Shown piece after piece: positions 4,275 to 53,293 of a stretch of DNA of 64,000 bases. Under the pieces are notes generated by a model. It had not been told where the DNA came from. It made no database searches and saw nothing but the letters and a program-made list of their open reading frames with translations. Each line of letters starts with the position of its first letter. Position 1 is the first letter of the stretch. The position numbers and the translations under genes are program-made. Source of the DNA: an uncultured Gammaproteobacteria bacterium (lineage in GTDB: Bacteria; Patescibacteriota; Patescibacteriia; Patescibacteriales; GWC2-42-12); contig CAZLKB010000003.1 in assembly GCA_964560005.1 (NCBI GenBank), forward strand, positions 40,712 through 104,711. The letters are read 5' to 3'.

Positions 4275-4291
4275 AATTGCCGGCTTCTTTG

Positions 4292-4364
4292 AGCCACCCG
4301 TCGGATTCGGACCGACGACCTACGGTTTACAAAACCGTTGCTCTACCAGCTGAGCTAGGGTGGC
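4292..4364 (-). tRNA. tRNA-Thr (anticodon TGT)
   Basis: The reverse complement folds as a cloverleaf: acceptor GCCACCC/GGGTGGC, D arm GCTC-AGCTGGTA-GAGC, anticodon stem ACGGT/ACCGT with loop TTTGTAA, T arm GTCGG-TCCGAAT-CCGAC. CCA is not encoded. Confidence 0.8.
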
Positions 4365-4490
4365 ATAATAATGTAAGCTTCAAAATTAAAAAATCAAAAT
4401 GACAATGCAAAATTTAAAATTAGCAATTTAAAAAAATTTTAATTTTAAACTGTCATTTTTAACTTTGATTTTTACATTTTGAATTTTTAT

Positions 4491-4612
4491 GTGCGTCGTG
4501 CTGGAATCGAAGCTCCTCTGTGCCGACCTCGTCGCTAAAATTGGATAACAGGACGACCGTCAGCTTAAAAATCCGCCAGCTGGCGGATCTGCGACTGAGC
4601 TAACTCTATGCA
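4491..4612 (-). pseudogene. Degenerate partial copy of tRNA-Lys (intact 3' T-arm/acceptor copy plus a decayed body)
   Basis: 4491-4511 (gtgcgtcgtgctggaatcgaa) is identical to 4634-4654 at the 3' end of tRNA-Lys. 4555-4605 retains D-arm and anticodon-loop remnants (ttagctcag ... ttttaagctga). The 5' acceptor strand is lost. Confidence 0.4.
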
Positions 4613-4634
4613 TTTTCTATTTTTATATTGTTAG

Positions 4635-4707
4635 TGCGTCGTGCTGGAATCGAACCAGCGACCATCAGCTTAAAAGGCTGTTGCTCTGCCAGCTGAGCTA
4701 ACGACGC
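4635..4707 (-). tRNA. tRNA-Lys (anticodon TTT)
   Basis: Reverse complement GCGTCGT-TA-GCTC-AGCTGGCA-GAGC-A-ACAGC-CTTTTAA-GCTGA-TGGTC-GCTGG-TTCGATT-CCAGC-ACGACGC-A is a canonical cloverleaf. Confidence 0.85.
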
Positions 4708-6632: not shown

Positions 6633-6737
6633 AAATGTAAAAATTAAAATGAAAAATGACAGTTAAAAATGTAAAATTAATAATTTTTAATTTTGCATTG
6701 TCATTTTACATTTTGAGATTTACATTTTACATTTTGC

Positions 6738-8705: not shown

Positions 8706-9734
8706 TTAAACATTTTTTTTATTTCTGTCAAGGTAAGCAAAAAATACTACCGCCAAGAGCATCATGCCGACCAGCAAAGCCAGGGCATAAACTTTACCAA
8801 TGCTTTGCAAAAACAAGGCGCTAAAGCCGAAGATTACGGCTAGAGCGTAATATAGCAAAACCGATTTTCTGACGGTAAGGCCCAAGGTAAGCAGCCGAAA
8901 ATGCAGATGCTTCCGATCCGCGATTTTAAACGGATTCTGGCCGGCCGCCAGGCGCCGCAGTATGGTCCAAACCACATCTAAGATCGGTATGCCCATAACT
9001 AGAAGAGCTATGGCGATTTTTCCGCCGGAAATTATCGCTAGCACCCCTAAGGCGTAGCCTAAAAATAAAGAACCGCCTTCGCCCAAAAAAATACGAGCCG
9101 GATGCCAATTAAAAAATAAAAATCCCAGGCAGGCCGCGGTTAAGACCAGCGCGGCGAAACCGATATCCGGCTGATAATATTTTTGCGATAAAGTAAAAAG
9201 AAATATAATGAATGCGCCGATAGCGGTCAAGCCGGTGACCAGGCCGTCCAGACCGTCGAGCAGCTTGGTCGTATACATCATGCCTAGAAGCCAGAGAGCA
9301 ATTAAAATAGCCGAAGCCGAGCCTAAGTATAAATAACCGCCCAGCGGGTTGGTAATTTTTTCAATCTCCACTCCGCCGGCGATCAGGCTGATAACGGCTA
9401 AACAAGGAAAAATAAACTGATAAACCGGTTTTAAATTATATTTATCGTCCAGATATCCGCCGATCATTAAAAAGCAGGCGCCGATGAAAAACGAGAGCCA
9501 ATGCCTTACGAGAAGATTGCCGGTAAGTATTTTATCCTGAAAAACGAATAAAATAATAAAAAAAGCCAAAAAAACCGCCAGACCGCCGAGCAAGGGAATA
9601 TTACCTTGATGAAATTTTCTCTCTTTATCCGGCTGATCGGTAATCTTAAATTTTTTAGCTAAACGCAAAACTAAAAAAGTCAGCCCTAAGGCTAACAAAA
9701 TGGTAATAACAAAAATTTCAAAATAAAAAAGCAT
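8706..9734 (-). CDS. Polyprenyl-phosphate N-acetylhexosamine-1-phosphate transferase (WecA/TagO/MraY family, GT4)
   Basis: Polytopic membrane protein with the GGYLDDKYNL and DGLDGL motifs of the MraY/WecA family. The true mraY, with a KSGTPTMGG motif, is at 52244-53293. Confidence 0.75.
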   Translation of the reverse strand: MLFYFEIFVITILLALGLTFLVLRLAKKFKITDQPDKERKFHQGNIPLLGGLAVFLAFFIILFVFQDKILTGNLLVRHWLSFFIGACFLMIGGYLDDKYNLKPVYQFIFPCLAVISLIAGGVEIEKITNPLGGYLYLGSASAILIALWLLGMMYTTKLLDGLDGLVTGLTAIGAFIIFLFTLSQKYYQPDIGFAALVLTAACLGFLFFNWHPARIFLGEGGSLFLGYALGVLAIISGGKIAIALLVMGIPILDVVWTILRRLAAGQNPFKIADRKHLHFRLLTLGLTVRKSVLLYYALAVIFGFSALFLQSIGKVYALALLVGMMLLAVVFFAYLDRNKKNV

Positions 9735-9994
9735 AAATTATTGTTCTTATCGAACCCTTCTTTTTTTATATGCTGGTTTTCTGCCACGCTTTCCATGGCT
9801 ATCATAAATTGAAATATCTCTCTGATTATAATTTAATCTATTTTTCAAAATATTTTTTTCTACTTCGTCCACAATTTTTTCTTGATCGTCTGTAAGCTTA
9901 GAGGGGTCAGGCTGGCTAAACGGCTCTCTAATCTCATATTCTTTCTCAAGATACGAAGGCTCTCTGCTTATGTCGTTTAAATCAATTTTCTTTA

Positions 9995-10152
9995 CATTTC
10001 TTTTACACTGCTTTCCGTCAACAGGTCCTCTTTTTCCATTAAGATTTCGCTTGGATTAGGACTTGGATCAGGTACTTCTTCTATAGGTATAAACATCTTT
10101 CTTCTTGCACTATGGGGAATTTTATTCATGTTGTCTGGATCAAAAAATTTCA
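9995..10152 (-). CDS. Small ORF (52 aa); possibly the 5' part of a frameshifted gene that continues in another frame to 9741
   Basis: MKFFDPDNMNK...SVKEM stop. An adjacent, overlapping open frame with no start codon (KKIDLNDISREPSYLEKEY...KKRRVR) runs to 9741. See findings. Confidence 0.2.
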
Positions 10153-10226
10153 TAAAATTATGCGGCCTCGTCTATCAAGACATTAAACTAGTTGTTATTA
10201 ATTGAAAATTGATAATTGAAAATTAT

Positions 10227-12983
10227 TTATAGCTCTCTCCCCCGCTTGACGCTGATCTTGGCTTCGCCGTCTATTACCACCGTATCCCTTCTCTTAATGC
10301 CGTCTTTTAAAACTATATTGGCTATTTCGTTTTCAATTTTTTCTTGAAGCAGGCGCCTGAGCGGGCGGGCGCCGAATTTCGGGTCAAACCCCAGAGCGGC
10401 TAATTTCTTAATTCCGGTTTCTTCATATTCCAGGCCGATGCCCTTGGCTTCCAATAATCGGGATACTTTTTTTAACATCAATTTAGTAATGCTTTCCACA
10501 TCCCCGAGGCTCAAGGGTTTAAATACTATAACGCCGTCAAAACGGTTAATCAATTCCGGCCTGATAAATTTATTTAATTGATCATTAACCAAGGACTCTT
10601 TAATTTGTTCAAGCGGAGTTCCCTTCTTGATTTCGTCCTGAATATAGACCGCGCCGATATTGGAGGTGGCGATTATAATACTAGAGGTAAAATCAATTGT
10701 CCGCCCCTGCCCGTCGGTCAGCCGGCCGTCGTCCATTACCTGCAAAAATAAATTCAATATATCAGGATGGGCTTTTTCTATTTCATCCAATAAAATGAGG
10801 CAAAACGGCGCTTTACGCACGGCTTCGGTTAAATAGCCTAAAATACCGTCCGGCGAACCGATCATTTTTTCTAGAGATTCCGGCCGTTGATACTCGCTCA
10901 TATCCAGCCTAACCATATAGTTCTCATTGCCGAAATAAACTTCCGCTACCGTCTTGGCTAATTCGGTCTTACCCACTCCGGTCGGCCCCAGAAAAAGAAA
11001 ATTGGCTATCGGCCTCTTGGTTTCCCTTAACTCGGTTCTGGCTCGCCTTAGACTGGCCGCGACCATAGCGACGGCTTCTACCTGGCCAACCATCCGTTTA
11101 TGCATATTCTCTTCTAAATCCAGCAAAGCTCCACTCTCCTTCTCCGTAATTTTAGTCAAAGGAATTTTAGTCTTCCGGCTAATGACGCTCGCTACATCTT
11201 CGGCGTCAACTATGCTATTTACGCCTTTATTCGTTGATACTTCAACCGCGATTGATTCCAAAACATCAACCGCTTTGGCCGGTAAAAATTTATCGTGAAT
11301 ATATTTAGCGGTTAATTCCACGGCTTTAGCAATACTGTCATAAGTGAAATAGACTTTATATTTTGCTTCATAAAAACCGATCTTGCTTTCAATCATCTGA
11401 ATGGCTAAATTCATATCAGGCTCGCTGACTTCAACTTTGGCCATGGCGTCGCCCAGCGGCTTATTTTCAACATATTTGGCATAATTTTTTTCACTGACCG
11501 AGGCTAAGCAAATAAATTCGCGGCGGCTTAAGGCATTGGATAAAACTTCAGATAATTCCAGGCTTTCTTCCTGGCCCGCGGTAATACCCATTAAATTTTC
11601 AATATTGCTAATATATAAAATAATATTTCTCGCCCGCGCCACTTCGTCAATAATAACCAAGAGCCTTTCTTCGGCTTTGGCTGGAGTCGCTCCGCTTAAG
11701 AGCCGGGGAATATCCAATTCCAGCAATCTTTTGTCTTTCAGGATTTTCGGCACATCTTCTTCCACCATCGCCCGCGCCACCTGACCGATGATCATATCTT
11801 TGCCTGCGCCGTTCGGACCGTAAAGCAATACTCCGCTTCTGCCGCTTTCCAAGTTTTGAAAAATCGCCTGGACTTCTCTCTCCCTGCCGACGCATAACTC
11901 CAACCTGCCCCATTTGGCGGCCAAGGTTAAGTCGTAAGAAAAGTGATTTAAAATCGGCGTAGCCACGGCGGTATAAGCTCGGTCCATTGAGCTGGCGGGC
12001 TTAAACCGGGAAGCTCGGCGATAAAGCCGGTAATTTTCCACCAATCGCTCGCTGATAACAAACCACTGAATGACATTATTAATTTTATCCCGGTCAATGC
12101 CCAGATCATAAAGTATTTCAGTTAAATTCTGATCGCGTTTAAGGCAGGGCAAGATGAAATTAATCGGATCTACTTTCTTTTGGCCTAAAGCCTCGGCATT
12201 AATATAGCTTTCCAGGAAAATCTCTTTTAATTCCAAAGATAAGCCGGTAGAATCGGCGCCGGCTTCCAAAGATAATAGCTGATTTTTTAACTTGCTGATC
12301 AATTTATCCGGATCGGCGTTAAGGCGTGAAAATAGGGCGGCCGCCGAATTATCTCTTAAGAGGCAAAAAAATAAATGAATCGGCTTAATCTCGCGGTGCT
12401 TGGCAAAATTCGCCAAAAGAAAAGCCTGCTCTACGACTTTAAACGCGCTCAAGCTAAAACCGTTTGATACTTCAATTTTGTATTTTCCCTTGCTGCTTCT
12501 AAACTCCAGCCAGTTATTAGGCGTTAGGTTCTCAATAGCCTCTCCATATTTAATTTTTTTTATTTTTTTCTTAGACGCTTCCTCCTCGCTTAAACGATAG
12601 ATGACAAACATGTCGGCGATTAAACTCACCCAAAATATAAGAATAAAAATACTTTTAACGCGCCAAAAGGCCAAAACGGTAAAATCGCCGGTATTCAAGC
12701 TGGCTAAATAAACCCAATAAGCTAAAGCCAGTAAACCGCATAAACCGGCGGCATAAGCCAATAAATTAACCACCAGGTGCAAGCTGGTTTTTAAATGCCT
12801 TAATTTTATAATCGGACGGCTTAACTCTAAATTGCTAAAATAAAATCTATTTTGATAATAAGCGATTAAGCCGTGGCCAAAACAATTTTTACATATCAGG
12901 CCGTGATCCAATACGCCGGCGCTGTTGCAAGCGGAGCAGGTGATGAATTGAATTGAATTTTTATTTATATCTTGTTTAGGCAT
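10227..12983 (-). CDS. ClpC/ClpB-like AAA+ chaperone with N-terminal zinc ribbon and transmembrane segments; first ATPase domain degenerate
   Basis: N-terminus CSACNSAGV...CKNCFGHG plus two hydrophobic helices. Clp N-domain repeats follow. NBD1 has Walker A GPNGAGKD and no DE in Walker B (IILYISNIENL). NBD2 is canonical (GPTGVGKTELAK; LILLDEIEKAHPD). The C-terminal D2-small domain is present. Confidence 0.85.
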   Translation of the reverse strand: MPKQDINKNSIQFITCSACNSAGVLDHGLICKNCFGHGLIAYYQNRFYFSNLELSRPIIKLRHLKTSLHLVVNLLAYAAGLCGLLALAYWVYLASLNTGDFTVLAFWRVKSIFILIFWVSLIADMFVIYRLSEEEASKKKIKKIKYGEAIENLTPNNWLEFRSSKGKYKIEVSNGFSLSAFKVVEQAFLLANFAKHREIKPIHLFFCLLRDNSAAALFSRLNADPDKLISKLKNQLLSLEAGADSTGLSLELKEIFLESYINAEALGQKKVDPINFILPCLKRDQNLTEILYDLGIDRDKINNVIQWFVISERLVENYRLYRRASRFKPASSMDRAYTAVATPILNHFSYDLTLAAKWGRLELCVGREREVQAIFQNLESGRSGVLLYGPNGAGKDMIIGQVARAMVEEDVPKILKDKRLLELDIPRLLSGATPAKAEERLLVIIDEVARARNIILYISNIENLMGITAGQEESLELSEVLSNALSRREFICLASVSEKNYAKYVENKPLGDAMAKVEVSEPDMNLAIQMIESKIGFYEAKYKVYFTYDSIAKAVELTAKYIHDKFLPAKAVDVLESIAVEVSTNKGVNSIVDAEDVASVISRKTKIPLTKITEKESGALLDLEENMHKRMVGQVEAVAMVAASLRRARTELRETKRPIANFLFLGPTGVGKTELAKTVAEVYFGNENYMVRLDMSEYQRPESLEKMIGSPDGILGYLTEAVRKAPFCLILLDEIEKAHPDILNLFLQVMDDGRLTDGQGRTIDFTSSIIIATSNIGAVYIQDEIKKGTPLEQIKESLVNDQLNKFIRPELINRFDGVIVFKPLSLGDVESITKLMLKKVSRLLEAKGIGLEYEETGIKKLAALGFDPKFGARPLRRLLQEKIENEIANIVLKDGIKRRDTVVIDGEAKISVKRGREL

Positions 12984-12984
12984 T

Positions 12985-13350
12985 TTAAATTAAAAGTTGA
13001 ATAGTTATTTCATAAATAACCAAGACCGGCAACAAAACCCAAAAACAGATCGCTAAAAACGCCAGGCTAAACCAAACCAGCATAACCAGGCTTCTAAAAA
13101 TGATCTGGCCTAAACGGACAAAAAAGCTGATCAGCATCCCCTGCCAATCATATTGAGCGTACATCGGCTTAAAAATATTTTTTATCCAAACCAACAGCGC
13201 CAAAGCTTTTTGCTGGTTTATCAAAAAATTTCTTACTCCCAAAATAAATTTGACCAAGCCGCGCGAATACCACCAAACCGGGAAATAAATTATATCCCTG
13301 AATAATTCAACAATAATTTGACCGGCGTAAAAAATAAAACTATTAGACAT
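12985..13350 (-). CDS. Hypothetical integral membrane protein (121 aa), operonic with the Clp-like ATPase
   Basis: Three or four hydrophobic helices. Its stop abuts the start of the Clp-like gene. Confidence 0.5.
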   Translation of the reverse strand: MSNSFIFYAGQIIVELFRDIIYFPVWWYSRGLVKFILGVRNFLINQQKALALLVWIKNIFKPMYAQYDWQGMLISFFVRLGQIIFRSLVMLVWFSLAFLAICFWVLLPVLVIYEITIQLLI

Positions 13351-13518
13351 AAAAAATTTAAAATTTAAAAATCAAAGTTAAAAATGACAATGTAAAATTT
13401 AAAAAATTATTATATTCAAACATTTTGCATTTTTAACTGTCATTTTGCATTTTGAGATTTTAACTTTACAATTTTATTATACCATATTCCCCTTTTTTGC
13501 ACCAAGCGCCGGCGAGCC

Positions 13519-16958: not shown

Positions 16959-17618
16959 TTAATACTTCGCTTCGTCCAATAAAAATAAATCGTAATCTTT
17001 TTTAAACAGCCTCTGGGCGATATGAAAAATGCCGAAGGTTATAAAATAGGCCGAAGCCACATCAATTGAATAATGGTAATGAGCCAGCAGCACGCTGATT
17101 CCGGCTACGATTGATGAAGATAAAAAAACATAGCGCAAAATTTTCTGCCGCCAGAAAATTAAAGCGAACAAAAACGGCATGCCCGTATGGCCGGAAAAAA
17201 ACAAATCGGTCGGAGTGGTAAAAACGCTGATAAAACTATCCATGGCCGCTCGTTCAGGAAACGGCCCGAAATGAGTTAAGATAATAAAGAATGACCTAAT
17301 AACTATGAACAGCGCCGCGCTTTTTAAGACGAAAGGTATGACTTTGGGTTCGCGGGTAAGCAAATAAATTACAAAAATAATAAAAACCAAGGAGCCCTCA
17401 ACAAATATTATATTAGTATCTATGACCGGCAAAATATTAAGCAAGATATCGGTTACAGCGTTACTTGATTTTAAAGCGGCGTAGATAATGGCATAATAAT
17501 TGATAATAATACTGGCGGTAAAGAACAATACGCCGATTAGAACCGAAATGATAAATTGCTTTTGCGACCAATAAAATTTATGTTTAGCGATAATATGCCG
17601 CATAATACTCGGAAACAA
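16959..17618 (-). CDS. Integral membrane protein, PAP2-like phosphatase superfamily (tentative)
   Basis: Six TM helices. SGHTGMPF and HYHYSIDV resemble PAP2 motifs C2 (PSGH) and C3 (SRx5Hx3D). Confidence 0.45.
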   Translation of the reverse strand: MFPSIMRHIIAKHKFYWSQKQFIISVLIGVLFFTASIIINYYAIIYAALKSSNAVTDILLNILPVIDTNIIFVEGSLVFIIFVIYLLTREPKVIPFVLKSAALFIVIRSFFIILTHFGPFPERAAMDSFISVFTTPTDLFFSGHTGMPFLFALIFWRQKILRYVFLSSSIVAGISVLLAHYHYSIDVASAYFITFGIFHIAQRLFKKDYDLFLLDEAKY

Positions 17619-17652
17619 ATTATTATAAAAATTTTCCGGACAGTCGGCGTTT

Positions 17653-18132
17653 TTACCTTGGGGTCGTGGTGGCGTTTTCCGCCCTGGCCGGTCTTAGCTG
17701 AATCATTTGCGCTGTAATGCTGCCGTCAGTGTTGGTCGTGCCGTTAGCTATTACCGTTTGGCCGACGACTAGATCAGAAAGGCTGCCGGCCGCGAACTTT
17801 GAAATTTGGGTGCTGGCTGACAGAAAAATTATTTTTGAACCGCCGTCGGCTGATTTAACAGTAATGCTTTTATCGTCAATGGCTAAGATGTCGCCGTTTA
17901 TAAAACCTCCGGCCATCCTGTTTCCGCCGCCGGCCAACCCGGAGCCATTCCTTTGCATCCCGCCGATGCCGCCGGCGCCGAACCCCTGGCGCTGGCTAAA
18001 AGATGAATTTTGCGCCCCGCCCTGGCTCTTGCCATAAATCATACCGCCGTAAAAAGATCCGCCTCCAACAATAATTATAGCGATAATAAAACCAATTAGC
18101 AATGTATTTTTCATACTTTTTCCAACTGTCAT
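17653..18132 (-). CDS. Secreted/membrane-anchored Gly-rich hypothetical protein; paralogue of 22372-22872
   Basis: N-terminal TM anchor, Gly/Gln-rich linker, then a conserved C-terminal module (ITVKSADGGSKIIF...LSDLVVGQTV). The likely true start is MKNTLL at 18114. Confidence 0.5.
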   Translation of the reverse strand: MTVGKSMKNTLLIGFIIAIIIVGGGSFYGGMIYGKSQGGAQNSSFSQRQGFGAGGIGGMQRNGSGLAGGGNRMAGGFINGDILAIDDKSITVKSADGGSKIIFLSASTQISKFAAGSLSDLVVGQTVIANGTTNTDGSITAQMIQLRPARAENATTTPR

Positions 18133-18234
18133 GCTGGAGCGACTGAAAGGAGCGATAGCATCTTGTTCTTACTATTTCCTGCAAGATTCTATCGCTTCGC
18201 TCCAGAATGACATAATGTATTATAAATTATTTAA

Positions 18235-19461
18235 TTACTCAAACCTTAAGGCTTCTATCGGGTTTAAATTTGAGGCTCGCCGAGCCGGATAATAACCGAA
18301 GACCAATCCGATAACCGCGGAAACTCCAAAAGCCAAAATAACGGAATAAAAAGATACGGTGGTGGCCGTTCCGGCAAAACGAGTTATTAATATAGACGCC
18401 AGCCAGCCGAGAAAAACGCCGATAACGCCGCCGAGCAAAGTTAAAATAACCGCCTCGGTTAAAAATTGCCCGTTAATATCCTGCTTGGTGGCGCCGATGG
18501 CTTTGCGCAGGCCGATCTCACGAGTCCGCTCGGTCACGGTAGTCAGCATCATATTCATAATGCCGATGCCGCCAACGATTAAAGAAATTCCGGCGATAGA
18601 GGCTAAGAGCATGGTAAAAGTATTGGTAACGCTGGAGGCCGTGGCCACGATATCGGCTTGATTCATAATGCTAAAATCGGCCTGGGTGGAGTCGGATATT
18701 TTATGCCGTTGTAAGAGCAAATTGCTTACCTGCTCCTCTACCGCGGCCATATCGCCGGAGCTTTCCGCTTGTATGCTGATAGTGGACACATAATCTGCTC
18801 CGGCCAAGTATCTCTGCATAGTCGTTAAAGGAATATAGATTATATCGTCCTGGTTGGAAAAACCGCTGCCGCCCTTTGACTTAGCCAGACCGATAACTCT
18901 AAATTCCATTTTATTAATTTTGATGGTTTGCCCGATTATGCCGGTAGCATCGGTGCCGAACAAATCGTCGCGTACTGTCGGGCCGATCACCGCCGCCTTG
19001 GATAAACTTAAATTATTTTGTTCGGTGATAAACGACCCCTGATCTATCTCTATGCTTCTGACTTCGGCATAACTCGCGGTCACGCCATTCACCGAAGTGT
19101 TTGTATTGGCGCCTTTCGCCGTTACCTGATACCGGCCGGAAAGATTAGGCGCTACCGCCTTTACGGAAGACACTTCCGCCTCTACGGCGTCGGCATCGGC
19201 CTGAGTCAGAGACTGAGCCGCTCCCCGCCCGGTACTGACTCCGGCGCCGAAATTTCGCTGCATGCCCGGCATAACCATAATCAAATTTGAACCGATTGAC
19301 TGGATGCTTGATTCAATTGAGCCTTTAGCGCCTTGGCCGATTGACACCATGGCGATAACCGAAGCGATGCCTATGACTATGCCTAACATAGTCAAGCTTG
19401 ACCTGACTTTATTGCTTGATAGCGCTAAAAAACTTTCTTGGAATAAATCTGTATATAACAT
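18235..19461 (-). CDS. ABC transporter permease, MacB/FtsX family
   Basis: N-terminal TM, large periplasmic domain and a C-terminal FtsX 3-TM domain. Adjacent to an ABC ATPase and an adaptor. Confidence 0.85.
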   Translation of the reverse strand: MLYTDLFQESFLALSSNKVRSSLTMLGIVIGIASVIAMVSIGQGAKGSIESSIQSIGSNLIMVMPGMQRNFGAGVSTGRGAAQSLTQADADAVEAEVSSVKAVAPNLSGRYQVTAKGANTNTSVNGVTASYAEVRSIEIDQGSFITEQNNLSLSKAAVIGPTVRDDLFGTDATGIIGQTIKINKMEFRVIGLAKSKGGSGFSNQDDIIYIPLTTMQRYLAGADYVSTISIQAESSGDMAAVEEQVSNLLLQRHKISDSTQADFSIMNQADIVATASSVTNTFTMLLASIAGISLIVGGIGIMNMMLTTVTERTREIGLRKAIGATKQDINGQFLTEAVILTLLGGVIGVFLGWLASILITRFAGTATTVSFYSVILAFGVSAVIGLVFGYYPARRASNLNPIEALRFE

Positions 19462-19581
19462 TATAAATTTTTAATTTTTAATTTTATAAATAATTTTTAA
19501 TATACTAATTTTTAATGAAAATTTTCTAAATTTATTTTGATATTAAAAATTTAGATATTATTTAAAAAATTAAAAATTTCA

Positions 19582-20322
19582 TTACAATCTCGCAATTACT
19601 CTTTTATTTTCGTTCTTATTATCACTTACTATATTACCATCTCTAATAGTTACTATCCTGTCCGTATGTTCAGCCACATATTGCTCATGCGTAATTAAGA
19701 TTATCGTTTTGCCTTTGCCGTTCAAATTCTGAAATGTCCCTAAAACAATATCACCGGTCTTGGTATCCAGGTTTCCGGTGGGCTCGTCGGCCAGGATAAT
19801 CGCCGGGTTATTCACCAAGGAGCGGGCGATGGCTACCCGTTGCATCTGGCCGCCGGATAGTTGATTAGAAAGATGGTTAAAATGCTCCGCTTCCAGCCCG
19901 GCCTGAAGCAAAGCTTCCCTGGCTTTCTGCTCGCGCTGTTCTTTCGGCACGCCGGCGTAAATCATAGGCAGAATTACATTGCGTAAAACCGTGGCGCGTG
20001 AAAGCAGGTTGAAGGACTGGAAGACAAAGCCGATTTTCTCCTGCCGAGTTTTAGCTAATTCATCATCCGACAAAGAGGAGACATCATGCCCGTCCAGAAA
20101 ATACCGGCCGCGCGTAGCCGTATCCAGCGCCCCCAGAATATGCATTAAAGTGGATTTGCCTGAACCGGACGGTCCGATAATTGCGATAAATTCTCCTTTT
20201 TCAACCTTAAAGGAAATATTTTTTAATACCTCCGTAACCACGCCACCGGTATCGTACGATTTATAAATATTATTGCATTTTATCATTGGCAGCGATGCCA
20301 GATAAAGTTTTAGTTTTTCCAC
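19582..20322 (-). CDS. ABC transporter ATP-binding protein (MacB/LolD-type)
   Basis: Walker [10 protein letters not shown], signature [13 protein letters not shown], Walker [12 protein letters not shown]. Confidence 0.9.
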
Positions 20323-25971: not shown

Positions 25972-26083
25972 AATGTAAATCTCAAAATGTAAAATAACAA
26001 TGCAAAGTGTAAAATTACTTCTTAAGACATTTTGCATTTTAAACTGTCATTTTCAATTTTGATTTTTACATTTTACATTATCT
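25962..26083. repeat. Family A palindromic AT-rich intergenic element
   Basis: aaaatgtaaatctcaaaatgtaaaataacaatgcaaagtgtaaaatt...cattttgcattttaaactgtcattttcaattttgatttttacattttacatt. Confidence 0.7.
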
Positions 26084-35673: not shown

Positions 35674-35675
35674 AA

Positions 35676-35790
35676 AAATTAAAAATGTAAAATGTAAATC
35701 TCAAAATGACAATGTAAAATTTAAAATTATTAAATTAATAAATTTACATTTTGAACTGTCATTTTTCATTTTGATTTTTACATTTTACAT
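35676..35790. repeat. Family A palindromic AT-rich intergenic element between miaB and dnaJ
   Basis: aaaatgtaaaatgtaaatctcaaaatgacaatgtaaaatttaaaatt...tttacattttgaactgtcatttttcattttgatttttacattttacattt. Confidence 0.7.
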
Positions 35791-35794
35791 TTTT

Positions 35795-41452: not shown

Positions 41453-41510
41453 ATATTTGTTCTCCTTCCCCGCTCAAACTATATTCCAAAGCTTGAGCGA
41501 TAATTATATT

Positions 41511-41660
41511 ATAATTTAAAATGTAAATCTCAAAATGTAAAATGACAGTTGAAAATGCAAAATGTCTAAATTAATAATTTTAAACTTTACATTGTCATTG
41601 CTCTGCAATGACCCCGCATCTGCGGGGTGCTAGCGGAGCTAGCATTTTACATTTTGATTT
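41511..41660. repeat. Family A palindromic element carrying an inserted GC-rich hairpin, between grpE and hsp20
   Basis: aaaatgtaaatctcaaaatgtaaaatgacagttgaaaatgcaaaatg...actttacattgtcatt plus ctctgcaatgaccccgcatctgcggggtgctagcggagctagc. Confidence 0.65.
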
Positions 41661-41661
41661 T

Positions 41662-42525
41662 TTAACTTTTCATTTTATAAACTACCACCTTGGCCGCTTC
41701 TATCACCTTGCCATTAAGCTTATACCCGGCCTTCATCTCGCGAGCCACTTTGCCATCCAATTTTTTATCATCCGTTTCTTCGTTCTGTATGGCTTCCATG
41801 GTATTATGATCAAATTTTTCTTCCGCGGTTTTAATTTCCGTTACCCCGATTTTTTCCAAAACATCCTTAAATTGCTTAACCACATGCTTAACGCCGGTTA
41901 GCCATTCGTCCGCCGACTCATTATTATGATGTTCAATAGCCATCTTTAAATGATCGTAAACCGGTAAAATTTCTTTTAGCATTATTTCATTGGCAAACAT
42001 GGCGAACTCCATTTTTTCCTTAGCCGTCTGCTTCATTAAATTCTGATAATCAGCCAAAGCGCGCTTATATAGCCCCTCGTGATCGTTCTCTCTGGCTGTA
42101 ATAAATTTTTCCACGCTGACTCTGGTGTAAGGGTTTAATTCTAATTCTTTTAGAGCTGTCTCCGGCTTAATCCATTTATATTCTTCCATCTCCCTATTCT
42201 TCTCGGCCATCTTTCCGCCGGCCAGATGGGCGCTATAATCCAAAAAAACAAAATGAACTTTTCTTTCAAATTCTTTTGGATAAACGCAGTCCTGCAGGTC
42301 GTTAAATTTTATATTATCAATTTCCAAGCCGGTTTCTTCTCTAATTTCCCGCTTTAAAGCTTGCTCGCAGGTTTCACCTAATTCAACATGGCCGCCCGGA
42401 ATCTGCCAGTATGCTCCCCACTTTGAAGATTTGGTTAATAAAATTTCGTCCTGATTATTATAAATTATCGCCGCCACTACGGTTTCCGGATATTTTTTAT
42501 CGCTCTTTTTTATTTCTTCCGCCAT
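41662..42525 (-). CDS. grpE: Nudix hydrolase domain fused to nucleotide exchange factor GrpE
   Basis: N-terminal Nudix box (GGHVELGETCEQALKREIREETGL, residues 44-67). C-terminal GrpE helical pair and beta domain (PVYDHLKMAIEHH...FDHNTMEAIQ...GYKLNGKVIEAAKVVVYK). Position between hrcA and dnaK. Confidence 0.8.
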   Translation of the reverse strand: MAEEIKKSDKKYPETVVAAIIYNNQDEILLTKSSKWGAYWQIPGGHVELGETCEQALKREIREETGLEIDNIKFNDLQDCVYPKEFERKVHFVFLDYSAHLAGGKMAEKNREMEEYKWIKPETALKELELNPYTRVSVEKFITARENDHEGLYKRALADYQNLMKQTAKEKMEFAMFANEIMLKEILPVYDHLKMAIEHHNNESADEWLTGVKHVVKQFKDVLEKIGVTEIKTAEEKFDHNTMEAIQNEETDDKKLDGKVAREMKAGYKLNGKVIEAAKVVVYKMKS

Positions 42526-42526
42526 A

Positions 42527-43213
42527 TTATTTCTCTATTAAAATATCATTAATAAATTTTACTAACGCTAAGTTTTTTTCATAATTCATCCTCATCGGCC
42601 CTAATACTCCCACTAATCCGACATTATCGCCCAACCGATATTTCGTAATAATGACACTACAATAAGCGCCGAACGGATTTTTCGCGCCCAGCATAATCTG
42701 CGTCCCGAATTTTAAATCATTAAAAATGCGGCCGATGATTTCATCCAGGCGATCAATCAAGCCGGAAATATCATAAATCATATCGGCTTGGGAAAATTCC
42801 GGCTGATGCAAAAGGTTGGAAACCCCGGTGTAATATAAATTATGCTTGTGGAAAGCCCAGAAAATCGCGTTGCCGGAAATTTTTGCCATAATCTTGGCCG
42901 CTTGCTTAAAGCTCATTTCTTCCTTCTTGGCCAAGATTTCTTTAAAAATTTTTGCTTCGCTTTCGCTTAACTTCTTTTCGCTTAAGTTTTCCAAATAAAA
43001 ATTATAGGCTTTTTCCGTCGGGATGCGGCCGGCCGAAGTATGCGGCTGGGCGATGTATCCGGCTTCTTCCAGGTCCGCCATTTCATTTCTAACCGTGGCC
43101 GAAGAAATGTCCAAATTATACTTTTCCACCAAGCCTTCAGAACCGATGGGCATAGCGGTTTTTATGTATTCTTTGATTATGGTCTTTAGTATTAATTCCT
43201 TGCGTTTGTCCAT
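42527..43213 (-). CDS. hrcA: Heat-inducible transcription repressor HrcA (short form)
   Basis: N-terminal wHTH (ELILKTIIKEYIKTAMPIGSEGLVEKYNLDISSATVRNEMADLEEAGYI). A CIRCE operator sits upstream. Confidence 0.85.
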   Translation of the reverse strand: MDKRKELILKTIIKEYIKTAMPIGSEGLVEKYNLDISSATVRNEMADLEEAGYIAQPHTSAGRIPTEKAYNFYLENLSEKKLSESEAKIFKEILAKKEEMSFKQAAKIMAKISGNAIFWAFHKHNLYYTGVSNLLHQPEFSQADMIYDISGLIDRLDEIIGRIFNDLKFGTQIMLGAKNPFGAYCSVIITKYRLGDNVGLVGVLGPMRMNYEKNLALVKFINDILIEK

Positions 43214-43297: not shown

Positions 43298-43326
43298 ATT
43301 ATATAAAACATTAGCACTCCTGTCAA
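43298..43326 (-). promoter_or_regulatory. Sigma70 promoter of the hrcA operon (TTGACA-N17-TATAAT on the minus strand) overlapping CIRCE
   Basis: Minus-strand -35 ttgaca (complement of 43321-43326) and -10 tataat (complement of 43298-43303), 17-nt spacer. Confidence 0.55.
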
Positions 43327-43337
43327 GAGAGTGCTAA
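43311..43337. promoter_or_regulatory. CIRCE operator (HrcA binding site), perfect inverted repeat
   Basis: TTAGCACTC-CTGTCAAGA-GAGTGCTAA matches the CIRCE consensus TTAGCACTC-N9-GAGTGCTAA exactly. Confidence 0.85.
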
Positions 43338-52243: not shown

Positions 52244-53293
52244 TTACAGGTGTCTATCCAATAAAAACACAATCAAGCCGATAGCCGCGCTGATGCCGGC
52301 GATTACCCAAAAACGCATGACGATTTTTGCTTCCGGCCAGCCGATGGCCTCAAAATGATGATGAATCGGCGAAGAAATAAATATTTTTTTGCCTCTGATT
52401 TTTTTAGATAGCTGCTGTAAGATAAAAGACAGCGACTCAATGACAAAAACCAAGCCGATGATCGGCAAAATCAAAGCTGAATTGGTCAGCATGGCGATTA
52501 CTCCCAAAGTTATGCCCAGGCTCATGGCTCCGGTATCACCCATAAAGAAACGCGCCGGCGTAATATTAAACCATAAAAAAGCCAACAGCGCTCCGACAAT
52601 AACGCCGCAGAAAGTGGCTAAATCATATTTGCCAGTTGAAAAAGCGATCACGCCGAAAGCGGCAAAGCATAAAAGCAAGACGCCGCCCGCCAAGCCGTCT
52701 AAACCGTCGGTTTCATTGACCGAAAAGGCGGTGGAAACCAAGACCAGGATAAAAATTAAAATATACGGCCAGCCTAATTGAAAATCTCCCATAAAGGGCA
52801 CATGAAAAATATCCCAATCCAATTTAAAGTAAAACCACCAGGCGCCAATGGCGGCAATAATCGTGTAAATCATCAAACGATGCTTAATCCTTAAGCCGCC
52901 GCCGCCTAAAATACCCTTGCCTTTAATATCCAGCCAGTCATCAAACAGGCCGATCAAGGCCGTGGCCACTAAGACACCCAACGGCAAGAGCGTCTGGCTC
53001 CTGGATAAAAAATTTAATTGTTTAAAAATATCAAAAGGTAAAAAATTGGCTAAATAATAAAATAGCAAAGCAAAGATCAATACCGTCAGCCAGACTAATA
53101 TACCGCCCATGGTCGGCGTACCGCTCTTATGGGCATGCAATTTCGTATAAACCGGGGTGCTGCCGCTGGCTCTAATCTGCTTGCCCATTTTATATTTATA
53201 TAAATAATGGGTTAAGAGCGGCGTCCAAAGCAGGGCGAAAATAAAGGCCGAGGCCGAAAGCAGTAAAATTTTAATGATGTAAAAATCAAACAT
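52244..53293 (-). CDS. mraY: Phospho-N-acetylmuramoyl-pentapeptide transferase MraY
   Basis: KSGTPTMGG, NETDGLDGLAGG and HHHFE motifs. Confidence 0.95.
   Translation of the reverse strand: MFDFYIIKILLLSASAFIFALLWTPLLTHYLYKYKMGKQIRASGSTPVYTKLHAHKSGTPTMGGILVWLTVLIFALLFYYLANFLPFDIFKQLNFLSRSQTLLPLGVLVATALIGLFDDWLDIKGKGILGGGGLRIKHRLMIYTIIAAIGAWWFYFKLDWDIFHVPFMGDFQLGWPYILIFILVLVSTAFSVNETDGLDGLAGGVLLLCFAAFGVIAFSTGKYDLATFCGVIVGALLAFLWFNITPARFFMGDTGAMSLGITLGVIAMLTNSALILPIIGLVFVIESLSFILQQLSKKIRGKKIFISSPIHHHFEAIGWPEAKIVMRFWVIAGISAAIGLIVFLLDRHL

Follow-up and report, generated by a model that had tools for sequence, protein, structure and literature searches.

Background

To our knowledge, Clp/Hsp100 ATPases have been described as soluble proteins, and our literature search found neither a membrane-anchored Clp/Hsp100 nor a description of such a protein. 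Here we analyse a candidate for one: a 918 amino acid (aa) Clp/Hsp100 homologue with a predicted N-terminal membrane anchor, a degenerate first AAA+ module (D1) and a second module (D2) that is catalytically complete by sequence, encoded just downstream of a 121 aa hydrophobic protein in a 64,000 nucleotide (nt) stretch of contig CAZLKB010000003.1 (GenBank assembly GCA_964560005.1, positions 40,712 to 104,711 of the forward strand), hereafter the window. A model that saw only the letters of the window and its open reading frames (ORFs) had proposed that the larger protein is a ClpC-like, membrane-tethered unfoldase with a single engine (the original prediction).

Like ClpA, ClpB and ClpC, the window protein has a Clp_N domain, two AAA+ modules and a ClpB_D2-small domain, and its D2 is about 55% identical to that of ClpC and ClpB in the best HMMER stretches. 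It differs from all three by its putative N-terminal zinc finger and transmembrane (TM) hairpin, its dead D1 and its truncated D2 pore loop. Unlike ClpB and ClpC, it lacks an M-domain (a trait in common with ClpA) and, unlike ClpA and ClpC, it lacks the ClpP-docking tripeptide (as does ClpB); nor does it match ClpB in having two hydrolysis-competent rings with a pore-loop tyrosine each. Soluble and without a Clp_N domain, ClpE docks ClpP and has both rings active, its zinc finger lying directly before D1. This class I Clp ATPase of the Firmicutes carries a conserved N-terminal zinc finger (PMC3472708), so that such a motif on a Clp ATPase is not without precedent. In the window protein, unlike in ClpE, the zinc motif consists of CxxCxGxG repeats, a predicted TM hairpin and Clp_N come after it, and the ClpP loop is missing.

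The predicted membrane anchoring finds its counterparts in FtsH, archaeal LonB and Msp1/ATAD1, whose AAA+ ring is likewise held at the cytoplasmic face by N-terminal TM helices (two of them in FtsH, as here); membrane proteins are extracted by these machines (for Msp1, PMC12793716). Those proteins belong to another AAA+ clade and have a single classical AAA module, linked in FtsH and LonB to a protease domain, and they lack the Clp_N domain, the dead extra ring and the dedicated small membrane partner of the kind found with the window protein. The latter, unlike FtsH-type proteases, has Clp-type modules and no M41 peptidase domain. By analogy, its way of working would combine that of ClpA/ClpB-type Hsp100s with that of the membrane-anchored AAA+ machines FtsH and Msp1.

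Three other groups offer partial parallels. In NSF, Pex1/Pex6 and p97-type proteins, which are soluble, one ring is there mainly for assembly or to bind nucleotide and the other acts as the motor, the inactive ring of NSF being D2; the window protein resembles them in having one weak or inactive ring and differs in clade and predicted solubility. Plasmodium HSP101, in the PTEX translocon, is an Hsp100 working with a membrane pore; both of its rings are active, it lacks a TM segment and, with its D2 exit toward the pore, it exports its substrates, unlike the window protein, which would be anchored N-terminally with its exit toward the cytoplasm. Torsins, finally, are related to Clp/Hsp100 D2, are membrane-associated, have no pore-loop aromatics and need membrane partners; they are eukaryotic, luminal, single-ring proteins without an arginine finger of their own, unlike the window protein, in which the D2 arginine finger R814 is invariant.

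Results and Discussion

Architecture and class of the Clp protein

Both ORFs of the pair are found in the ORF listing of the window as in the original prediction, and the stop codon (TAA) of the small gene does abut the start (ATG) of the Clp gene, with 1 nt between them. The large protein and its N-terminal half are laid out as follows.

10227..12983, minus strand: putative membrane-anchored Clp/Hsp100 double-AAA+ protein, 918 aa (Pfam, HMMER, AlphaFold2)
12870..12938, minus strand: putative C4 zinc-binding motif, two CxxCxGxG repeats, residues 16-38 (cysteine conservation)
12702..12785, minus strand: predicted TM helix 1, residues 67-94 (family-mean Kyte-Doolittle 2.1, Wimley-White sum -8.4)
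12594..12665, minus strand: predicted TM helix 2, residues 107-130 (hydropathy, conservation)
12006..12470, minus strand: Clp_N-type N-domain, residues 172-326 (Pfam PF02861; AlphaFold2 helical repeat fold, pLDDT about 90)

The Pfam domains above cut-off are Clp_N (PF02861), AAA_lid_9 (PF17871), AAA_2 (PF07724) and ClpB_D2-small (PF10431), and the order from the N-terminus is C4 zinc motif, two-helix hydrophobic hairpin, Clp_N, D1 and D2. The AlphaFold2 model of the whole protein (pLDDT 83, pTM 0.73) contains a Clp_N domain and two AAA+ modules, and its AAA+ core can be overlaid on protomers of ClpC and ClpB at a TM-score of about 0.8. Its best sequence matches in the PDB are ClpC proteins, with a ClpE structure among the top matches, and its closest named relatives (76-80% identity) are from Candidatus Falkowbacteria. 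By its domains and fold, the protein is assigned to class I of the Clp/Hsp100 family.

Motifs were compared in a HMMER alignment to Bacillus subtilis ClpC and a MAFFT alignment with Escherichia coli ClpB and ClpA. No M-domain was found in either: residues 405-467 of B. subtilis ClpC, where the short, MecA-binding M-domain lies, are unmatched, and about 120 residues of ClpB, whose M-domain is a long coiled coil connecting D1 and D2, have no counterpart. The ClpP-docking [ILV]G[FL] tripeptide is absent at the position of ClpC VGF and ClpA IGL, where the region is ClpB-like in length. Lacking both elements, the protein is therefore not a ClpC, a ClpB or a ClpA, and the earlier label "ClpC-like" was too specific. 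That it is atypical for Clp ATPases was rightly predicted: the NCBIfam equivalogs for ClpB, ClpA, ClpV, ClpG and ClpK all matched far below cut-off (528 bits against 1232 for TIGR03346, ClpB; 467 against 993 for TIGR02639, ClpA), and no Pfam or NCBIfam model covers its N-terminal module.

The N-terminal module

The four cysteines are arranged as C16-x2-C19 and C31-x2-C34, one pair per CxxCxGxG repeat, and they are invariant in 116 of 116 relatives, as are the flanking glycines. In the broader family they are kept in 75 of 91 full-length representatives. The C4 motif of the original prediction is thereby upheld. The DnaJ cysteine-rich domain has four CxxCxGxG repeats and two zinc centres; the two repeats of the Clp protein would be enough for one. 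When the first 60 residues of seven family members were searched, the DnaJ model (PF00684, DnaJ_CXXCXGXG) was the first or second Pfam hit for all seven fragments, with 15-22 bits against a cut-off of 32.7. This is below cut-off, as expected of half a domain, and we therefore speak of a resemblance to the DnaJ cysteine-rich domain and not of membership.

Both hydrophobic segments pass the Kyte-Doolittle (at least 1.6) and Wimley-White thresholds on the family average. The mean number of lysines plus arginines is 5.0 before TM1, 0.2 in the 12 aa loop and 5.7 after TM2, and AlphaFold2 models the zinc motif as short beta hairpins followed by helices at 56-96 and 112-137, with a pLDDT of about 85 for the TM segments. 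Hydropathy, positive-inside flanks and modelled helices all agree with the membrane tethering originally proposed. The hairpin is predicted to have both ends inside, with almost nothing exposed outside, which would therefore place the zinc finger, Clp_N and both AAA+ modules at the cytoplasmic face. TM2 is unusually conserved (W107, F117, W118, F126, Y129 and R130 are invariant), with an entropy of 1.05, equal to the conservation of D1, and this is more than a passive anchor would need. A pairing of D124 in TM2 with R79 or R86 of the 121 aa protein was considered and dropped, D124 being unconserved.

The two AAA+ modules

The motifs of D1 are as follows.

11214..11951, minus strand: D1 AAA+ module, catalytically degenerate (alignments)
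11796-11819, minus strand: D1 Walker A, GPNGAGKD (canonical GKT replaced by GKD)
11673-11696, minus strand: D1 former pore loop, SGATPAKA (canonical KYRGEFE replaced by TPAKAEE)
11604-11624, minus strand: D1 Walker B, IILYISN (canonical hhhhDE)
11439-11456, minus strand: D1 former arginine fingers, LGDAMA (canonical RR replaced by DA)

In the alignments to ClpC, ClpB and ClpA, D1 lacks the Walker A threonine, the Walker B glutamate, both arginine fingers and the pore-loop tyrosine. The Walker losses noted originally are thus real and not alignment shifts, those of the arginine fingers and pore loop coming in addition. The Walker A Thr/Ser position is occupied by N, R, K or D in the clade of the window protein, and the Walker B glutamate position by N in 98 and D in 16 of 116 close relatives, never by E. 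When 90 more distant full-length representatives (34-57% identity) are included, "DE" is found at D1 Walker B in 1 of 91 sequences and GK[TS] at Walker A in 30 of 91. The D1 catalytic glutamate was therefore lost early and across the whole family. By sequence criteria D1 is incapable of ATP hydrolysis, yet it is highly conserved.

The motifs of D2 are listed below.

10230..11126, minus strand: D2 AAA+ module and small domain, catalytically complete by sequence (alignments)
10965-10988, minus strand: D2 Walker A, GPTGVGKT
10830-10859, minus strand: D2 truncated pore loop, GSPDGILGYL
10782-10799, minus strand: D2 Walker B, LILLDE
10659-10667, minus strand: D2 sensor 1, TSN (N775)
10542-10544, minus strand: D2 arginine finger, R814
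10353-10373, minus strand: D2 sensor 2, GARPLRR

The Walker A, Walker B, sensor 1, arginine finger and sensor 2 residues of D2 are invariant in the 116 sequences, and with a mean entropy of 0.65 D2 exceeds the rest of the protein in conservation, so that its ATP hydrolysis would be under selection. A single engine, as originally proposed, is therefore what the window protein would have, D1 being dead and D2 catalytically complete. The accompanying claim that D2 is intact stands for its catalytic residues and fails for pore loop 1, where a change had been missed: against ClpC, ClpB and ClpA, GAPPGYVGYEEGG is replaced by GSPDGILGY, which is five residues shorter and has GILG in place of the canonical GYVG with its tyrosine. 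Deep branches of the family keep a full-length D2 loop (APPG[YF]xG...GG[YQ]LTE), consistent with an ancestral threading machine, the five residues including the aromatic one having been deleted in the clade of the window protein. The invariant Y717 was considered as a displaced pore-loop tyrosine; when aligned with deep-branch members whose loop is full-length, it falls on a variable residue after "GG" and not on the tyrosine of GYVG, which weakens the idea.

The small partner and the distribution of the pair

The gene directly upstream of the Clp gene encodes a protein without Pfam, NCBIfam or PADLOC hits and without a fold match in the PDB.

12985..13350, minus strand: small hydrophobic partner, 121 aa (ORF, conserved motifs)

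Its 186 homologues have a mean column identity of 72% and conserve the motifs YFPxWWYSRGL and WIKNIFRPMYAQYDWQG. The original prediction of a four-TM protein holds as far as a conserved, small, hydrophobic membrane protein is concerned; four TM helices are not supported, residues ~73-121 alone passing the TM thresholds and the N-terminal 60 residues being aromatic and amphipathic. The AlphaFold2 model (pLDDT 80) is all helical, with three helices. In our reading, the partner would have one or two TM helices together with interfacial helices.

Searches with residues 1-583 of the Clp protein retrieved at least 385 clusters at 90% identity, with all named hits from Patescibacteria, Parcubacteria or Falkowbacteria. 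When one genome per GTDB species was scanned with a pattern, the protein turned up in 288 genomes, and a profile of residues 1-345 yielded 885 representatives at 50% identity. Synteny was counted in the 80 best genome loci. In 70 of them the small gene is found upstream, on the strand of the Clp gene; of the remaining ten, eight lack upstream DNA, leaving 70 of 72 informative loci. The two genes are an estimated 30 nt apart or less in 52 of the 70 paired loci, and many overlap. Conversely, among 69 metagenome loci found with the small protein and having at least 300 nt downstream, 66 have a Clp gene of this family there, two of the three exceptions having barely 300 nt. Two deep-branch members also carry the partner directly upstream (E 7e-32 and 6e-42). 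The co-occurrence check suggested with the original prediction thus bears out an operon with a small membrane protein, and, judged by these counts, the pair forms a conserved module of Patescibacteria.

At least one genome (L076) also contains a canonical ClpB-type paralogue, at 17072-19748 on the minus strand and 5 kb from the membrane-anchored gene, so that the membrane-anchored form is an extra, specialised paralogue there. This ClpB-type protein retains both Walker A/B pairs, GYVG, a KFRGEFE pore loop and a long M-domain; unusually for ClpB, a "SIGF" tripeptide occupies the place of the ClpP-docking loop. A number of public records that contain the Clp gene are titled "uncultured Gammaproteobacteria bacterium" (TPA; L004, L007, L013 and about 25 others) and one "Nanoarchaeia archaeon" (L068); their gene content, with 41-68% identity to the window protein, suggests that the titles are placeholder labels or result from mis-binning.

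Positional orthologues without D2

A third form of the family, of about 605 aa, comprises 20 clusters, also from Falkowbacteria (e.g. P0275, P0300, P0391-P0402). It keeps the zinc finger, the hairpin and Clp_N, its D1 is even more eroded and D2 is absent, the protein ending in a conserved ...PYTKILK. In six loci (L165-L170; the gene is at 8001-9821 in L165), this form occupies the same genomic position as the window gene: it follows directly after hrcA-grpE-dnaK-dnaJ-(lepB), the order being dnaK...dnaJ-(lepB)-gene-GT4-rplU, with recR, ybaB and dnaB on the opposite strand. GT4, a family-4 glycosyltransferase gene, follows in six of six. Neither a homologue of the small protein, even at E<=10, nor a stand-alone D2 gene, over 6-8 kb, was found in these six loci; D2 and the partner thus go together, in presence as in absence. 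The natural variants of the family appear to record a stepwise loss of the motor, and the single-engine idea has to be amended for this clade, in which D2 is lost altogether.

Possible functions

We propose with moderate confidence that the pair is an Hsp100 remodelling machine that is tethered to the membrane, powered by D2 and equipped with the small protein as an integral subunit, and that it would act on membrane-proximal clients without proteolysis. By analogy with its relatives, the large protein would be hexameric. D1 would be a structural or assembly ring, possibly binding nucleotide, and D2 the sole motor, with six hairpins and the small subunits forming a membrane collar above the entry face of the ring. 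Driven by ATP hydrolysis in D2, the machine would act from the cytoplasmic side on proteins in or near the membrane, remodelling them, pulling them apart or extracting them, and the clients would be released and not degraded. In favour of this reading are the domain architecture, with no element for coupling to DnaK (M-domain) or to ClpP, the predicted topology of the hairpin, a D1 that is dead across the family beside a strongly conserved D2, the linkage to the partner in both directions and in deep branches, the joint absence of D2 and partner, the coexistence with a canonical ClpB-type paralogue, and the full-length D2 loop of deep branches. The anchor is N-terminal and Hsp100 proteins take in their substrates at the N-domain/D1 face, which argues for extraction or disassembly into the cytoplasm and not for export; the secretion-linked role offered in the original prediction is disfavoured by this geometry, since the D2 exit would face the cytoplasm.

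Several observations weigh against this reading. The canonical, substrate-gripping pore-loop tyrosine is gone from both rings in the clade of the window protein, which also makes the earlier term "unfoldase" insecure, and the tip of the D2 loop differs among sequences (V/T/A/I, then L/R/K), although the rest of D2 is nearly invariant. Given this truncated and variable tip, threading of the classical processive kind is doubtful in the clade, so that whether the window protein threads substrates is uncertain; its shortened loop could provide a weak or non-processive grip instead. The joint loss of D2 and the partner was probably a single evolutionary event, and the orthologues that occupy this genomic position without a D2 show that the function would in part need no motor. 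Finally, the Clp operon has no CIRCE/HrcA site upstream, and a link to the stress regulon is therefore not supported.

A bolder form of the proposal seems to us possible rather than probable: the pair would be a novel membrane machine with a pseudo-ATPase Hsp100 tier, a TM collar and a dedicated small integral subunit, in which D2 dislocates or disassembles membrane proteins or does non-threading conformational work, making it a counterpart, from the Clp clade, of FtsH and Msp1 in Patescibacteria with reduced genomes.

The alternative that survives best, although we consider it unlikely, stems from the gene downstream.

8706..9734, minus strand: WecA-like polyprenyl-phosphate sugar-phosphate transferase, GT4 (Glycos_transf_4, 342 aa; TIGR02380)

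The WecA model TIGR02380 scores 128 bits on this protein, below cut-off and above the MraY score. The gene is found downstream on the same strand in about 58 of 60 informative loci, against about 24 of 80 loci retaining the wider synteny (rplU, recR, dnaB), and it also follows all six D2-less orthologues and the Clp gene of L172. From synteny only, we infer that GT4 may be part of the functional unit. The Clp protein could then be an ATP-driven factor that, without threading, regulates envelope glycoconjugate synthesis or assembles its enzymes, with the TM hairpin, alone or with the small subunit, contacting the WecA-like transferase and D2 cycles switching or assembling the enzyme complex. 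TM2 being as conserved as D1 and the pore-loop aromatics being gone would both fit such a role. However, GT4 is not adjacent in the deep-branch locus L171 nor in L041 and L049, the gap of ~450-490 nt between the two genes makes co-transcription not evident, and adjacency alone does not imply interaction.

Less likely still is that the protein acts mainly as an ATP-independent membrane scaffold, holdase or adaptor, through the zinc finger, Clp_N, the dead D1 and the hairpin, with a D2 motor in decay. The stepwise series, from a D1 dead throughout the family to a truncated D2 pore loop in the clade of the window protein and the loss of D2 in its sister clade, would be expected on this account. 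Against it, D2 is the most conserved module, with catalytic residues invariant in 116 sequences, unlike a decaying domain, and the partner is kept wherever D2 is kept.

That the protein is the ATPase partner of a protease (ClpP, as for ClpC and ClpA, or FtsH through a hand-off) in a membrane-bound degradation machine is very improbable. The relatives are named "ATP-dependent Clp protease ATP-binding subunit" in their sources and the best PDB sequence matches are ClpC proteins, but those names are automatic annotations, the ClpP-loop position has a region of ClpB-like length without the [ILV]G[FL] tripeptide, and a search of neighbouring genes found no ClpP gene in the window or in the 80 loci. 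An ordinary soluble chaperone of the ClpB/ClpC type, with an N-terminal extension due to a mis-called start or forming a buried hydrophobic element, is extremely unlikely, as the N-terminal module, with an unchanged start, is shared by more than 100 proteins and 288 species genomes, is confidently modelled by AlphaFold2, combines TM-grade hydropathy with a positive-inside charge pattern and begins 1 nt from the upstream gene. A reading as an anti-phage defence system was rejected as well: PADLOC returned generic AAA+ overlaps only, with nothing on the 121 aa protein or GT4, and the gene lies amid core genes.

Genomic surroundings

Near the Clp gene, dnaB, ybaB and recR are on the plus strand, rplU and GT4 lie downstream on the minus strand, and secE, nusG, rplK and rplA diverge upstream of the pair. 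Further off in the window are an hrcA-grpE-hsp20-dnaK...dnaJ operon, a dcw cluster and type IV pilus genes. These surroundings are those of a small-genome Patescibacterium. The dcw cluster includes, beside FtsW and MurG, a second family-4 glycosyl-phosphate transferase (52244-53293, minus strand), presumed to be MraY.

The interval upstream of the 121 aa gene contains the following feature.

13352..13475: AT-rich region containing a promoter-like site on the minus strand, -35 at 13436 and -10 ending at 13409 (consensus match only)

This site falls within one copy (13352-13475) of a dispersed, AT-rich, imperfectly palindromic intergenic repeat of ~100 nt, with the core AAAATG[CTA]AAAATGACAGTT ... 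AACTGTCATTTT[GA]CATTTT. The copies are at about 4380-4490, 6633-6737, 13352-13475, 25972-26083, 35674-35794 and 41453-41661, and the 13-mer of the repeat occurs 13 times in the window against 0.87 expected. The element, one copy of which separates the Clp operon from secE, resembles a REP/MITE-like element or a bidirectional terminator/promoter module. The heptamer AAAATGCAAAATG upstream of the operon, also present beside dnaJ and grpE, was considered as an operator of a chaperone regulon and rejected because it is an arm of this repeat, which is found beside recR, tRNA genes and others too. A perfect CIRCE inverted repeat (TTAGCACTC-N9-GAGTGCTAA) is present at 43311-43337, upstream of hrcA (42527-43213), with no second site in the window at up to three mismatches.

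The interval between the Clp gene and the WecA-like gene (9735-10226, minus strand) is unusually long at ~490 nt and gave no credible Rfam match. Within it lie two short ORFs for hydrophilic products of 53 aa and ~85 aa, each in its own frame, which are unconserved in the 80 related loci and may be the remains of a decayed gene; the 53 aa ORF was for that reason rejected as a component of the system.

Two further observations concern genes elsewhere in the window. The GrpE gene (41662-42525, minus strand) seems to be fused to an N-terminal NUDIX hydrolase (Pfam NUDIX 15-132, GrpE 149-284), GrpE in related loci being a stand-alone protein of ~160 aa. Between tRNA-Thr (4291-4364) and tRNA-Lys (4634-4707) lies a tRNA-like remnant (4491-4611, minus strand), not called by ARAGORN or Rfam, which has the T-arm/3' end and the anticodon-loop region in common with tRNA-Lys, a ~45 nt insert and no matching acceptor stem.

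Conclusions

The natural series described here, from a dead D1 to a truncated D2 loop to the loss of D2 and the partner, constitutes a set of variants in which the contribution of each AAA+ tier and of the pore loop can be studied, and the proteins are small enough for heterologous expression and cryo-electron microscopy, so that the question can be addressed without culturing the organism. If the proposed reading is true, a membrane-integrated Hsp100 with an obligate small subunit would widen the repertoire of the well-studied Clp/Hsp100 family, and it would point to a route of membrane proteostasis or envelope assembly peculiar to candidate-phyla bacteria.

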